Assembly (NCBI RefSeq): GCF_058153355.1
Contig: NZ_CM177019.1
DNA length: 64,000 nt
Reading direction: 5' to 3' (one strand)
Made by a program: the position numbers. Below are positions 24,001 through 45,000 of this stretch, in pieces (the stretch's first letter is position 1; each line of letters begins with the position of its first letter).

Positions 24001-27000
24001 CCGGGAACTGAAAGCCCGTATCACTGTTGCCAGCTACTTTAAGCCAATGTGCGCCGCGCTGGAGGCGTACCGGGCAGAACTGGGTAAAAACACTCTACAG
24101 CACCACTACACCACGGAAGCTAATATGCTGGCGCGTATCGTGCTGGGTGGCATGACTGCAAAACAGTGGGCACTGGCGAACGGCATCACAAGCGAACCAC
24201 GCGACCACATGAGCACGTTGCAGCTTGAGCACCTTTCTTACCTTGAGCAGAGCAATATCACGCTGATTGAGTTAGGCCAGGACTACCACCAGCGGAAAGC
24301 TGAATTAATTCGTCTTTCGCAGCGCTGGTTAGCCCGTCGCATGGAGGAAAACAACCATGTGTAACGCTCTGACCGTTACAAAAAGAGAAAGCGCCCCGTT
24401 GCCGGAGCGCCTTTGTGAACGAATAGCCTACTGCGCCATATTGCTTACTGTCTACGAGGCAGATTATAGCGTTGTGGTCGCACAGAGTGAAGGCACTGAT
24501 CACCGTTACTACAGCACGCCAGAAATGCAGAATATTTTGCTGCAAAATGCCGCTGGCCACGCTGTCCGGAAAGCAAAAAATTTTGCTGGTGGCGCGACTG
24601 ATACGATTTTTTCTGGTCGCCAGGTGCTGATCAATCTGATGTCTGATTTCGTTCTGGATAAAACAAAGGCGACCGCAGAGGGCCACCAGTGGGAAAGCTA
24701 CACACTTGAACACATCGCCAACAATGCCAGATTTGCGGCTGGTGGGCAATGTGATCAGTGTGTTGGCTTGCTGGTGGGCTGTTCGTCTGGTTCAGTCCGT
24801 TGCCATGCATGGAGTGAACGCATTTTCCAGGAATACTCTTTGAGGTACTTCTCAAGAGCAAACGCACACGGGGCGAATCTCTCCGGTTCATGTTCGTTTA
24901 CCGCATTTTTGCGTTGTTTTTTCCTGGATGAGGATAATTTCTTTAATGATTTGTCAGTCATCGTATATACCTGTAACCCTGTGCGCCACAGTTCACTGCA
25001 CCACGGCGCTGATGGTGATTACTCTGATTCTTTGGCCTTGCGGCGCTGGCGGCGTTTGATCTCACCTTCAAGTGCCGAAACGATAAATTGTCCAGTGCTT
25101 TCGCCTTCTTCCTTTAAACTTTCTACAGCGTCAGCTATTGCATGGGGTACTCGTGCCTCAAGTTTTTTTGATTTTCCATTAACTGCTTTCGTTGCCATAT
25201 CTGATTCCCTTGTTATTAGGTGGCTGACAGTATACACACAAGAAAATGGAAAAACACTATTGACGTGGCTGACACCTGTTACTAGTATAGTGGCTGACAC
25301 CTTTATTAAGGTAATCGATGAAAAGACAAAGCCCGCAGGCGCTACCAACACCAACGGGCTTCTAACCACCAACGATAGAAAGCGTATCGAGGTAGCTATG
25401 TTAAATCATACCACACACCCGCAAGGGCGGGACTCGCACAACCTGAATAAAGCGGGGGTAAAAAACCAGTTGATCGCCACTGCCAGCCAGGGCTATGATT
25501 TATCTGCACCAGCAAAATCTGGTGCCCGGATTGGCGTCCTGAAAATTCTGAAGGCGACATATGACGCGCCGAGCGTCTTTTTTTATGTCGTAGGTCTGAC
25601 TCACCCATTTTTTGGGCGTTGGTGTATAATCCAGCGCCTTTGTCAATCAATGGTGGCTCAGGCGGGGGCTTCTTCGGAAGCGCCGGTATCCTTCAGAGCC
25701 GGTTACGCCAACCCTGTCTGGGCTACCACCAGCGAAATTGGCGTTTCCGGTGGTAGCGTAACCTGCTATCTGAAGGAGGCTGCCGACATGGCTACTACCC
25801 CTACCCTTGTACATTCTCAAACCGTCTTTCTCTGGCGCTTTATCGCCCTGAGCACAGCACAACCGCGCGTGATTCACATCGTGGCCACCAGCGAACAGGA
25901 AGCCCGCCAGCAATCTCCGGCTGGCTGCGTGATGGTATTCGCCGCCCGTATTCGTCAGGAGGTGGGCCATGATTAATCTGTCACTTACCGACCTTAACCG
26001 TAAGCGTCTTATCAGGACCGTCTGGCAAATTCCCGATGCTTTGGACAAAGTATCCACCACTAAATTAATAGTGGGTGATAAAAATGTCAGATATACAAAA
26101 AAATGCCTCTCCGGGAAGGCCTAAAGGGTGCCTGAATTATCCTCCTGAATTCAAACAACGACTCATAGAAGCATCATTCCAGCCAGGTGTTTCAATTTCC
26201 AGACTGGCCCTGGACAATGGTATTAATGCCAATCTGTTGTTCAAATGGCGTCAGAAATGGCGGCAGGGGAAGATAAAATTGCCATCATCAGAATCAGGCA
26301 GAGAATCTCAGTTAATTCCTGTCACTATTGATGCCCAACTCCCAACTGCTCCGGCTAATGAGCCACTGACCGCAAGACCGTCAGTAACACCGGAAATACA
26401 CAGCATCTCCTGTGAGATTACGTTCAGAAACGGCACCCTTCGGTTGAACGGGGCAGTGAATGAAAATCTGCTGTCCTTGCTTATACAGGAGCTGAGACGG
26501 TGATATCTCTCCCTGCAGGTTCGCGTATCTGGCTGGTTGCAGGTATCACCGATATGCGAAATGGCTTTAACGGCCTGGCCTCAAAAGTTCAGAACGTCCT
26601 GAAGGATGACCCGTTCTCCGGGCATCTGTTCATCTTCCGCGGACGCCGGGGTGACCAGATAAAAGTGTTGTGGGCTGACAGTGACGGACTGTGCCTCTTC
26701 ACCAGACGCCTGGAGCGGGGCCGCTTCGTCTGGCCGGTCACCCGTGACGGCAAGGTGCACCTTACTCCGGCCCAGTTATCCATGCTTCTTGAGGGCATCG
26801 ACTGGAAACACCCGAAACGAACGGAACGCGCTGGCATCCGCATATAACCCGTTGTAAAGTGAGGATATGGACACCTCACTTGCTCATGAGAATGCCCGCC
26901 TGCGGGCACTGTTGCAGACGCAACAGGACACCATCCGCCAGATGGCGAAATACAACCGCCTGCTCTCACAGCGGGTGGCGGCTTATGCTTCCGAAATCAA

Positions 27001-42000: not shown

Positions 42001-45000
42001 AATTCAGGAGGATAATTCAGGCACCCTTTAGGCCTTCCCGGAGAGGCATTTTTTTGTATATCTGACATTTTTATCACCCACTATTAATTTAGTGGTGGAT
42101 ACTTTGTCCAAAGCATCGGGAATTTGCCAGACGGTCCTGATAAGACGCTTACGAATCTTTTATGAAAGGGAAATCTACATTAACTCTTCTGCTCGCTGGT
42201 ATATTCTCATGCGGCACATGCCAGGCGACAGGGGCAGAAGTGACGAGTGAATCTGTATTTAACATTCTTAATTCCACAGGGGCAGCAACAGATAAAAGTT
42301 ATTTATCGTTAAATCCAGATAAGTATCCTAATTATCGTCTTCTGATTCACTCAGCCAAATTAAAAAATGAAATAAAGAGCCACTATACCAAAGACGAAAT
42401 TCAAGGATTGTTAACATTAACAGAAAACACACGAAAGTTAACGTTGACGGAGAAACCCTGGGGAACGTTTATTCTTGCTTCTACTTTCGAAGATGACAAA
42501 ACAGCGGCAGAAACCCACTATGATGCTGTCTGGCTGAGGGATAGTTTATGGGGCTATATGGCATTAGTATCAGATCAGGAAAATAGGGTAGCTGCAAAAA
42601 AGATTCTGCTCACCCTGTGGGATTATATGTCTACGCCCGACCAGATTAAGCGGATGCAGGACGTCATTAGCAACCCAAAACGACTGGATGGAATTTCCGG
42701 GCAAATGAATGCTGTGCATATCCGATTTGACAGCAACTCCCCCGTGATGGCAGATGTGCAGGAAGAAGGCAAGCCGCAGCTGTGGAACCATAAACAAAAT
42801 GATGCGTTAGGTCTTTATCTTGATCTCCTTATACAAGCAATCGACACTGGTACTATTAACGCTGAAGATTGGGAAAAAGGTGACCGATTAAAATCGATTG
42901 CGCTGTTGGTTGCTTATCTGGATAAAGCCAATTTCTATGTTATGGAAGATTCCGGAGCGTGGGAAGAAGATGCCCGATTAAACACATCTTCCGTTGCACT
43001 GGTGACCTCTGGACTGGAACGTTTGTCAAACCTACTCTCGAAGAAAGACTCTGTTTTTATCTCTGATTTACTACGCGAAGCTAAAGCTAATGAACTGGAT
43101 GAACCTCTTTCAACAACGAGGTTGAACCACCTCATAGATAAAGGTTATGAAAGAATAACGTTACAGCTTGATTTAGGGGGAGAATCCCCAGGTTATCTGG
43201 AAAAAGATAAACATTACAGAGAAGCCGATGCGGCTTTACTTAATGTTATTTATCCTGCAAATCTTTCAAAGATAAATACCAGAAGAAAAGAGCAAGTTCT
43301 AAAAATAGTTAAAAAACTAGCAGGTCCGTATGGTATAAAAAGATACGAGAAGGATAATTATCAGTCGGCAAATTTTTGGTTCAATGATATTAAAACCGAT
43401 ACCGATCAAAATTCATATGCGAAAAGAGAAATGAGCTTCATACCATCAACAGAAGCAGAATGGTTTTTTGACTCATGGTATGCAAAATCAGCAGCAATTG
43501 TTTATAAAGAATCAAGAAAAGAAGAGTATTTGAATGACTCAGTGCAATTTATGAATAGATCATTGGCCCAAATAACAGGCGAGAATATGATTGGTGCAAA
43601 TGGCAGGAGTGTACCTGAAATGGCACTTCCCGAAAGCTATAACTATATCCACAAGTCGGGAACTTTGCATGAAGCGCCAAGCCCTATCATTCCGCTAAAT
43701 TGGTCGAAAGCTTCAATGACTCTCATGTTGAAAGAGATGTCCAACCTTATCAATGATGAGGGAAATAAATAGTTTTCATAATGAGGCGGTCCTGGATTAA
43801 AAGGACCGCTCAAAGAGAAATCGAAAGGGGAGGTAAAAGTGATCAATAAATTACTGTTAGCTTACCTGATAGGTCTGGTTGTGACATCGACTTTAATATT
43901 TATCTTCTCGGAAGAAAAAGTAACATATCGGTTGTTTGCTGCAATAATTACAGGTTTAACCTGGCCGCTTAGTCTCATTCCTTCCATTATAAGTCTCATG
44001 ATTCGTAAATCCGACTAACAAGAAAATTATATGATCGATTAAGAAAAATAGAATCGAACAAGAGAATAAAATATATGCGGGGAGTAACAAAACACTCGCA
44101 GTGCGTTAATGAAGAACTAACAAATATGATTTGTATTGAAAATAGTTACCAAACAAGTGTTATAAGAAATACGAGGTGTGTTTAAGTAAAACATATCAAC
44201 AGTTACAAATCTGTATATGGACAGGATGACGTACAAGTGTAAGTGGCTGATAGCTATTCGCTCATAACAAAATCATTATTTTATAAATAGGAATCATCAC
44301 TTTTTAATCATGTTTTTATAGCAAGTTTATGGAGAATGAGAATATGGAATAAGGAGATGAAACATGATTGAAGAAGGGCTGTTACTTCCAATGAATGTTT
44401 TGCTTCAAGGACAGAAGTTAACCCTACTGGACCCTGAAATGTGGTTCTTACGGGGAAATGAAAACAAGGATGTAACCCTTGTTATTACGATTGGTAATAA
44501 CCATCAAAAATTAATGGTAGTGGAAGACATATTACTGCTCATTGACCGAAGCCAAATTGAGGTAACTGCAGGGAAAGTAATTTATCATCCACTTCGCATT
44601 GATATCCTGAGTAAATTATTAGCTTTTATAGATGAATCAACGGGGAGTGTGGAAAGGGAACACCATGACTTGTTTGCTGATGCCTTGCCCTTTGCATCAG
44701 AAGTTGTGCTATTCAGTAAAGTTGCAAGTGAAGCCTGGTTTTTAGCCACTTATCTGAGCAGCGATAATATTAATGAAATTCTGTTTCAGCATCTAAGAAA
44801 AACAGAATGCTATAAACTGGTTCGCTATTTATTATCGCAATCGCTCATACAGACTTCACTCTATGATCTTGGTGAGCTTTACGGCGTATCGTATTCACAT
44901 TTTCGCCGTTTATGTAGTTATGCATTGGGTGGTAAAGTTAAAACGGAATTATGTGGCTGGAGAGTTGCCAGAGCCGTGTTGGAAATCATTGAAGGAAACA

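Follow-up and report, generated by a model that had tools for sequence, protein, structure and literature searches.

Two very probably separate insertions of an ISCro1-related IS66-family element in and beside a glyU-integrated P4-like island

The window (the whole 64,000-nucleotide stretch of DNA that was analysed) contains a P4-like satellite integrated at glyU and two copies of an IS66-family insertion sequence in inverted orientation. Copy 1 lies inside the satellite, and copy 2 in the chromosomal backbone 230 bp beyond its attR end. The features of the locus are:

20763–20781, plus strand: attL of the island, the 3' end of tRNA-Gly(CCC) glyU, TTCCCTTCGTCCGCTCCAA
25969–25999, plus strand: 5' stump (10 codons) of a split 69-aa island ORF, recognised by in-silico restoration
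25992–25999: left 8-bp duplication of copy 1, CCTTAACC, from flank reading
26000–28468, plus strand: IS66-family copy 1, an ISCro1-related mosaic of 2469 bp (repeat finder, domain matches)
about 26000–26023 and about 28445–28468: IRL and IRR of copy 1 (GTAAGCG..., 17/24 positions matching)
26084–26503, plus strand: tnpA of copy 1, 139 aa, HTH_Tnp_1 (PF01527; NF047595, 88.9 bits against a cutoff of 74)
26500–26847, plus strand: tnpB of copy 1, 115 aa, IS66 Orf2-like accessory protein (PF05717, 7e-40; NF033819)
26867–28438, plus strand: tnpC of copy 1, 523-aa DDE transposase (PF03050, 4.4e-104; NF033517)
28469–28476: right 8-bp duplication of copy 1, CCTTAACC, from flank reading; junction also in Logan contig L015
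28477–28655, plus strand: 3' part of the split 69-aa ORF
28469–39683: segment between the copies, 11,215 bp, in native (uninverted) orientation
39436–39453, plus strand: attR of the island, TTCCCTTCG-CCGCTCCAA, with one base deleted (k-mer comparison)
39676–39683: left 8-bp duplication of copy 2, GAATCTTT, from flank reading; empty sites have a single GAATATTT or GATTATTT
39684–42152, minus strand: IS66-family copy 2, 2469 bp, reverse complement of copy 1
39684–39707 and 42129–42152: IRR and IRL of copy 2
39714–41285, 41305–41652 and 41649–42068, all minus strand: tnpC, tnpB and tnpA of copy 2
42153–42160: right 8-bp duplication of copy 2, GAATCTTT; the junction IRL-GAATCTTT-T-ATG is also in Logan contig L007
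42162–43772, plus strand: intact ygeQ-type GH15-like gene, 536 aa (PF00723, 27.1 bits against a cutoff of 22)

Copy 1 sits in the early operon of the island, with the C4/isrK immunity RNAs on its upstream side and the DUF4222 and primase genes following it. Besides DUF4222 and a D5-type primase gene broken by ISSso6, the segment between the copies encodes SSB, ProQ-like and PerC-like proteins and a Panacea toxin-antitoxin pair, and it ends with attR and 230 bp of backbone. A search for the glyU 3' end with up to three mismatches did not recover attR, owing to the 1-bp deletion in attR. No RNA family was detected within either IS66 copy or ISSso6 in an Rfam E-value search of 20–44 kb.

Assignment of the element to the IS66 family, as proposed in a preliminary description of this DNA, is supported by all four kinds of evidence considered: protein domains, gene layout, termini and target duplications. 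The domain scores of TnpA, TnpB and TnpC exceed the curated cutoffs. TnpC contains leucine-zipper, zinc-finger, DDE_Tnp_IS66 and C-terminal domains; its match to PF03050 covers positions 1–283 of 284, those to PF13005, PF13007 and PF13817 each pass their cutoffs, and that to NF033517 reaches 479 bits (cutoff 180). tnpA and tnpB precede tnpC; the tnpA stop and the tnpB start overlap in GTGA at 26500–26503, and 19 nt separate the tnpB stop from the tnpC ATG. The terminal repeats begin with 5'-GTAA (GTAAGCG) and are imperfect, GTAAGCGTCTTATCAGGACCGTCT and GTAAGCGGCTCGCCAGAACCGTAT agreeing at 17 of their first 24 positions. Lastly, a perfect 8-bp duplication accompanies four independent insertions of the element (CCTTAACC, GAATCTTT, GAATAAGG and CACCGGAC).

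By direct string comparison the two 2469-bp copies are 100% identical as reverse complements, a result that depends on the assembly. Nucleotide differences between the copies would have spoken against the earlier reading, and pairwise comparison gives none. The repeat finder returned arms of 2470 nt (25999–28468 and 39684–42153; 100% complementary, 11215 nt apart), the 2470th base being a fortuitous match of flanking bases. A repeat search of the 64-kb window found no further copies or fragments of the element. Each copy has its own exact target-site duplication on re-reading of the flanks, which run ...GACCTTAACC|GTAAGCGTC...GCCGCTTAC|CCTTAACCGCATTC for copy 1 and ...GATGGAATCTTT|GTAAGCGGC...GACGCTTAC|GAATCTTTTATG for copy 2. 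On the plus strand of the window CCTTAACC occurs only at the two flanks of copy 1, and GAATCTTT occurs five times; the probability that 8/8 positions match by chance precisely where the IS ends is about 1.5e-5 for each copy.

Identity of the copies could by itself also be obtained via gene conversion or assembly polishing. Assemblies often contain a single consensus sequence wherever a repeat exceeds the read length, such that zero differences in 2469 bp would be weak evidence alone, and a collapsed consensus pasted twice, or a misjoin, might have produced either the second copy or its perfect identity to the first. The junctions, however, recur in independent assemblies of other sequencing runs. 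Contig L007 (SRR8656992) begins 27 nt inside IRL and continues to GAATCTTT-T-ATG at the GH15-like gene, and L015 (SRR31441161) independently carries the junction of IRR with CCTTAACC at site 1. In GCA_015332025.1, moreover, contig breaks coincide with the IS boundaries. Because of these junctions and breaks, the existence of both insertions is secure, and we regard an assembly artefact as highly improbable.

At site 1, deleting copy 1 and one CCTTAACC in silico restored the 69-aa ORF, a homologue of which is annotated intact in L002 (WP_257122781.1) and in L008–L014; the earlier statement that a small island gene is interrupted by copy 1 is thus borne out. The L002 locus aligns uninterrupted through the site with one CCTTAACC, and a single CCTTAACC is likewise present at the empty site in L008, L009 and L012–L014. 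Three of these loci, L012 (SRR8656992), L013 (GCA_015332025.1) and L014 (GCA_043012465.1), are 100.000% identical over 4311–4342 bp to the window minus copy 1. Genomes that share the same 4.3 kb of flanking DNA (100% identity) are therefore polymorphic for the presence of the element at site 1, which supports the recent transposition previously suggested from the identical proteins and indirectly points to an element that may still be active.

A polymorphism of this kind could also arise by loss. Slippage between 8-bp duplications can precisely restore the target of DDE insertion sequences at low frequency, and the ancestor of the clone might thus already have had copy 1, with precise excision having removed it from the relatives whose site 1 is empty. 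Such excision is rare, however, and the same clean empty site is found in L012–L014 with no differences over 4.3 kb. Because all the more distant relatives (L002 and L008–L011) are empty too, the empty site is the ancestral state, and prior loss of copy 1 is extremely unlikely.

At site 2, the L001 locus aligns uninterrupted with one GAATATTT, and further IS-free loci were found in L016, L017, L024 and L025 (with the 536-aa gene) and, at the sequence level, in L021–L023. The homologue of the GH15-like gene, likewise 536 aa, is named 'glycoside hydrolase family 15 protein' or YgeQ in RefSeq. In GCA_015332025.1, contig L027 matches window positions 32108–39681 with 0 mismatches and ends 2 bp short of the copy-2 junction; occupancy of site 2 in this assembly is read from that contig break and not from a read-through junction. 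Because near-clonal assemblies have site 1 empty and site 2 occupied, copy 2 is the older insertion and copy 1 a very recent, strain-level one.

The flanks and the empty sites also bear on whether a composite transposon with inverted ends, like Tn5 or Tn10, made up of the two copies and the intervening 11.2 kb, inserted here as a unit. Two identical inverted IS copies bracketing DNA are the classic layout of such a transposon, but each copy here has an inner and an outer duplication of its own, and the outer flanks (CCTTAACC and GAATCTTT) have no common 8-mer. A composite transposon should leave a duplication common to its outer ends and be absent as a whole unit from empty sites, and neither pattern was found; instead, the bracketed DNA is native island and backbone that continues in IS-free relatives. 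Flank sequences, together with the near-clonal genomes in which site 2 is filled and site 1 empty, refute this arrangement, which is almost certainly wrong.

As 2.47 kb of perfect inverted homology 11 kb apart, the copies are an efficient RecA substrate, and homologous recombination between them might have flipped the segment, leaving it inverted now or flipped back, as one isoform of a flipping population; an even number of flips would be invisible in a single assembly. Nevertheless, the duplications match at each copy, when one flip would put CCTTAACC...AAAGATTC around copy 1, and gene order on either side agrees with that of IS-free relatives. The very recent arrival of copy 1 has also left little opportunity for recombination. 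We consider past inversion to be very unlikely, in agreement with the earlier conclusion that the segment has undergone no net inversion. In Agrobacterium, every copy of IS66 has a unique 8-bp duplication, and the flanking 8-mers no longer match after recombination between copies (PMC6778807).

As a standing substrate for RecA-dependent inversion, the 2.47-kb repeats nonetheless make the 11-kb region able to invert and able to confuse assemblies; attR would be turned around by such an event, and the island locked in place. One might go further and propose that the pair acts as a RecA recombination switch, flipping attR (39436–39453) relative to attL so that the P4-like satellite alternates between excisable and locked states, alongside local hopping of an unnamed chimeric IS with an ISCro1 transposase module on a foreign IRL and tnpA. 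The single assembly contains the parental (unflipped) state only, and we view this combined proposal as very unlikely.

It is very probable, then, that the two copies represent two separate insertions of one putatively active 2469-bp IS66-family element, copy 2 first and then copy 1, and we met no evidence contradicting this structural reading. IS-free sites with a single 8-mer in E. coli and collinear flanks uphold the independent simple insertions claimed previously. The element encodes two accessory proteins, TnpA and TnpB, together with the DDE transposase TnpC, and has imperfect GTAAGCG... terminal repeats; in the mechanism that we envisage, a staggered 8-bp cut at integration would produce the 8-bp direct duplication. 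The first event would have placed copy 2 in the backbone, 230 bp past attR and 9 bp ahead of the ygeQ-type GH15 start codon; a later, very recent event would have placed copy 1 in the 69-aa ORF of the island early operon, with copy 2 or another identical copy as the donor. Retention of the older copy in place would fit copy-and-paste transposition. The copies would neither have recombined with each other nor have been delivered as a composite transposon.

The two insertions differ in their likely effects. Copy 1 is probably polar on island replication genes already inactivated by ISSso6, and thus probably neutral. Copy 2 ends at 42152 and the GH15-like gene begins with the ATG at 42162, such that 9 nt of the native upstream region are left; both this distance and the severing of the gene from that region are as originally described. 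It had also been proposed to map read-through from the IS into this gene, a check that ignores the orientation of copy 2. The IRL end adjoins the GH15-like gene and tnpA-tnpB-tnpC are transcribed away from it, on the minus strand. Because the transposase genes point away, transposase read-through into the gene is impossible, and because the IRL end abuts the gene, it could be driven solely by an outward, antisense promoter.

A consensus scan found no plus-strand promoter at IRL facing the GH15-like gene, and found two hairpin-plus-T sites (42032–42047 and 42078–42098). One candidate outward promoter picked by eye, CTGACA-N14/15-TATTAA/ATTAAT, was dismissed on account of its wrong spacing. From this simple consensus scan, the gene has probably been separated from its promoter, and also from the leading G of a weak GGA ribosome-binding motif, and silenced, although a weak or non-sigma-70 outward promoter may point toward it. 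An insertion of ISCro1 upstream of afaA reduced afaA transcription (PMC8764528). In this lineage, we predict silencing of the GH15/ygeQ gene, which lies on the margin of the ETT2 type III secretion cluster.

These insertions, although real, are ordinary biology, and they leave the known workings of IS66-family elements unchanged. The importance of the two insertions lies mainly in annotation and strain history: two IS events can be dated in one lineage, the ygeQ insertion being shared and the island insertion strain-specific, a combination that offers a ready marker for sub-typing very close isolates.

Among known elements, ISCro1 (from Citrobacter rodentium and common in E. coli chromosomes and plasmids) resembles the window element over bp 502–2469 (tnpB-tnpC-IRR), with 97% identical DNA, 112/115 identical residues in TnpB and 516/523 in TnpC, the same IRR and likewise an 8-bp duplication (GATTTAAG in E. 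coli A34). In contrast, the first 501 bp (IRL and tnpA) give no DNA alignment, TnpA has 139 aa rather than 216 aa and is 37.5% identical over 120 aa, and IRL is GTAAGCGTCTTATCAGGACCGTCT rather than GTAACCGTCTCATTTAAACCGTCT. The window element is 2469 bp long, whereas ISCro1 is 2704 bp in L005; its length has also been given as 2824 bp (PMC8764528). The two are not the same IS by the usual ISfinder-style threshold, about 95% DNA identity along the full length, as only bp 502–2469 align. Homology breaks exactly at the tnpA/tnpB overlap. Judged from these alignments, the element is a mosaic of an ISCro1-like tnpB-tnpC-IRR and an IRL-tnpA from another lineage, an example of module exchange at the tnpA/tnpB boundary within the IS66 family.

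A search of 5426 complete E. coli genomes, to which the backbone of the window is at most 98.7% identical, yielded no full-length copy of the element, and an exact 40-nt scan for the IS left end gave 0 matches in GTDB species-representative genomes. The closest relatives are draft assemblies of the surveillance type. Two elements elsewhere have the same length, ends and three-gene mosaic: an unnamed one on E. albertii plasmids such as pESA134_1 (NZ_CP070285.2; 2469 bp, 95.9% identity, 102 substitutions, duplication GAATAAGG) and one beside a SPATE autotransporter gene in GCA_047897835.1 (99.8%, 5 SNPs, duplication CACCGGAC), the latter being the only copy returned by exact TnpC and TnpA protein look-ups. 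Both are plasmid-borne, whereas the window copies are chromosomal. Tn5 and Tn10 likewise have two identical inverted IS copies around a DNA segment, but in the window pair the outer ends lack a common duplication, native DNA lies between the copies, and the copies inserted at different times. The prototypes IS66 and IS679 (Machida 1984; Han et al. 2001; Gourbeyre et al. 2010) encode tnpA, tnpB and tnpC, have termini starting with GTAA, generate 8-bp duplications and measure about 2.5–2.7 kb; the window element has the same features but belongs to a different lineage by sequence.

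The repeat search returned a sole long inverted pair in the window (25999-28468 and 39684-42153), whose arms are 100% complementary and lie 11,215 nt apart. By direct comparison, 26000-28468 (copy 1, + strand) is the reverse complement of 39684-42152 (copy 2, - strand) over 2469 bp with 0 differences; the 2470th base of the repeat arms is a chance match between flanking bases. At the four junctions we read CCTTAACC directly before 26000 and directly after 28468, its only occurrences on the window + strand, and GAATCTTT directly before 39684 and directly after 42152. The copy coordinates, the 8-bp target-site duplications and the 9-bp spacing between copy 2 and the start of the neighboring GH15 gene (ATG at 42162) all proved exact in the preliminary description. 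The element encodes three genes:

tnpA, ATG at 26084 in copy 1, 139 aa, HTH_Tnp_1 (Pfam)
tnpB, 115 aa, TnpB_IS66, 7e-40 (Pfam)
tnpC, 523 aa, LZ_Tnp_IS66, zf-IS66, DDE_Tnp_IS66 (4e-104, full length) and DDE_Tnp_IS66_C (Pfam)

The NCBIfam equivalogs for IS66 TnpA, TnpB and transposase all score above their cutoffs. The tnpB start overlaps the tnpA stop (GTGA), tnpC starts 19 nt past tnpB and is preceded by a GAGGA motif, and the imperfect terminal inverted repeats begin GTAAGCG and are identical at 17 of 24 positions. The element thus has all the structural features that define the IS66 family, including the 8-bp duplication.

Both insertion points exist in IS-free form with a single 8-mer. Site 1 is empty in E. 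coli SA53-3 (L002), where the alignment is gapless and the single CCTTAACC falls in a gene annotated as hypothetical (71 aa), with an Icd-like gene on one side and DUF4222 on the other. Site 2 is empty in E. coli cq9 (L001): the alignment runs across it, and one GAATATTT precedes the same GH15 gene (536 aa) by 9 nt. Further IS-free loci carry one GAATATTT or GATTATTT each. Both copy 2 duplications (GAATCTTT) carry a lineage-specific C, as duplication of an already existing target would predict. A composite transposon, in which the pair moved together, is ruled out because the outer flanks differ. A single inversion between the copies is likewise ruled out: it predicts copy 1 flanks of CCTTAACC and AAAGATTC, which are not seen, and gene order on either side of the 11.2-kb segment agrees with that of IS-free relatives. 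Therefore, given also the matching duplications of each copy, the earlier reading of two independent simple insertions around an uninverted 11-kb segment holds.

The window backbone is that of Escherichia (xdhA...ygeY; best E. coli identity 98.7%), with a P4-like satellite island of ~18.7 kb (20763-39453) integrated at glyU:

20707-20780, tRNA-Gly(CCC) gene glyU, after ygeY
20763-20781, attL, a 19-mer at the glyU 3' end
island genes, integrase, AlpA, AntA and an Ash domain
22202-22269, int-alpA RNA (Rfam)
25506-25583, isrK (Rfam)
25646-25733, C4 antisense RNA (Rfam)
further island genes, DUF4222, D5-type primase, SSB, ProQ-like and a Panacea toxin-antitoxin pair
39436-39453, attR, the attL 19-mer minus one base
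44364-45113, AraC-type regulator, downstream of the GH15 gene
45110-46813, type III secretion secretin, downstream of the GH15 gene

The position of attR places copy 1 within the island and copy 2 outside it, 230 bp past attR, which corrects the earlier placement of copy 2. Beyond the island lie the ygeQ-type GH15 gene (42162-43772, + strand) and then an ETT2-like cluster for type III secretion, apparently intact in the window; the region 3' of the GH15 gene (43839-46813 and beyond) begins with a 59-aa GhoT/OrtT-like small membrane protein. Within the island, a 539-aa open frame (24357-25976) spans both the isrK/C4 RNA immunity region and, at aa 381-487, an Ash-family domain; gene-calling programs divide it very variably in relatives with 100% identity (539, 445, 283 or 192 aa), and this frame is almost certainly not a single gene. 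At the island's right end (38351-39276), a 161-aa SocA_Panacea-domain protein overlaps a widespread 147-aa partner (240 index blocks list it) in what looks like a Panacea-type toxin-antitoxin pair. Short repeats just inside attR (39353-39378; AAATGTGTATAG, x2.2, and AGAATCTA) and just inside attL (20879-20903; GTGTATAG, with AGAATCTA recurring) may be integrase arm-type binding sites.

Near-clonal relatives, retrieved via exact-protein look-ups, reveal the order of the insertions. Compared with the window sequence minus copy 1 and one duplication, SRR8656992, GCA_015332025.1 and GCA_043012465.1 (L012-L014) are 100.000% identical over 4311-4342 bp, with one CCTTAACC and an intact 69-aa ORF. A second contig of the same SRR8656992 assembly, which encodes the identical GH15 protein, starts 27 nt inside the left terminal repeat (IRL) and reads ...GACGCTTAC|GAATCTTT|T|ATG, so that an empty site 1 and the copy 2/GH15 junction occur in one assembly. 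A 7574-bp contig of GCA_015332025.1 equals window 32108-39681 with 0 mismatches; one end lies 2 bp short of the copy 2 junction, the other just past ISSso6. The SRR31441161 contig (L015) opens with the right-repeat (IRR) end followed by CCTTAACC, so this assembly, like the window, has a filled site 1. These results indicate that the copy 2 and ISSso6 insertions are common to the clone and that copy 1 is newer and polymorphic. Recent transposition, previously suggested from the identity of the encoded proteins, is more strongly supported by this polymorphism than by identical copies, because gene conversion or assembly could also yield zero differences. The older copy kept its place when the newer one arose, which fits copy-and-paste transposition.

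As described earlier, copy 1 splits a small island gene, leaving only the first 10 codons of the 69-aa ORF 5' of the insertion. Polar effects are expected on the 66-aa ORF, DUF4222 and the primase. The primase was already broken by ISSso6 in the clone's common ancestor, and the copy 1 insertion is therefore probably neutral. With two IS insertions, the island is probably replication-defective. The perfect 2.47-kb inverted repeats also provide a substrate for inversion, which would flip attR relative to attL.

ISSso6 (IS110/IS1111-type, 30296-31423) lies between the IS66 copies, inside the D5-type primase gene (region 30171-32100). Its protein is an 'RNA-guided transposase' (NCBIfam), and the element has subterminal inverted repeats. 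Its 3' non-coding region and right subterminal repeat form three perfect tandem 205-bp units (31484-32104), whereas other copies have one unit (about 1.52 kb) or, on EIEC pINV (strain RMDEC332), two. In IS1111-type elements the non-coding region 3' of tnp encodes the target-selecting seekRNA (PMC11187229), so each unit would hold a seekRNA region and a right end, and the array may represent three putative guide-RNA copies with three alternative right ends. The unit boundary (CACGTT|AGCGCT|TGG) is similar to the insertion target (ACGGTA|AGCGCT|GAA, in comparison locus L008). The array perhaps arose via self-insertion followed by deletion.

Read-through from copy 2 into the GH15 gene had been proposed but cannot occur, since copy 2 carries its tnp genes on the minus strand, with the IRL end abutting GH15, and transposase transcription heads away. 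A consensus scan of the final 150 bp of the IS found no plus-strand promoter and two hairpin-plus-T sites. The insertion replaced the first G of a weak GGA motif 8-10 nt 5' of the ATG, and a junction-crossing ORF (42092-42250) differs in frame from GH15. The GH15 ORF itself is intact, with 536 aa as in E. coli. Loss of its expression is the most likely effect of copy 2; ISCro1 insertion 5' of afaA reduced afaA transcription (PMC8764528).

Among 5426 complete E. coli genomes, the full-length element is absent and only bp 502-2469 is matched (97%), in sequences annotated 'IS66-like element ISCro1 family transposase'. Compared with the 2704-bp ISCro1-type copy of E. coli A34 (duplication GATTTAAG), the window element shares 112/115 TnpB and 516/523 TnpC residues, but TnpA (216 aa in A34) is just 37.5% identical. 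These identities, and a homology break exactly at the tnpA/tnpB overlap (26000-26501 versus 26502-28468), show that the element is a mosaic of a foreign IRL-tnpA module and an ISCro1-like tnpB-tnpC-IRR module: the left 501 bp (IRL and TnpA) derive from another IS66 lineage, whereas the right 1968 bp are 97% ISCro1. A contig of SRR31942252 ends 27 nt past tnpA, as expected if the tnpB-tnpC part alone is repeated there.

This architecture is not a one-off. E. albertii plasmids carry it at the same 2469 bp (95.9% identity, duplication GAATAAGG), GCA_047897835.1 has the same element with 5 SNPs and its own duplication (CACCGGAC), and ETEC-type plasmids carry decayed copies. The GCA_047897835.1 copy (L006, 5017-7485; 99.8%), the sole other near-identical one found, is on an F-like plasmid contig and adjoins the gene for a 1363-aa SPATE autotransporter; its five differences are confined to a 94-bp stretch of tnpB (element positions 623-716), in what looks like a short conversion patch. 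The element is rare, and its left end has no exact match among GTDB representatives.

Apart from read-through and the location of copy 2, the preliminary description was right in observation and interpretation; added here are a dated insertion order, the element's mosaic structure and a corrected orientation argument. The biology is ordinary for the IS66 family, and the flank logic is that applied to Agrobacterium IS66, in which every copy is bounded by an 8-bp duplication of its own, unique to it, and the flanks of recombinants do not match (PMC6778807).
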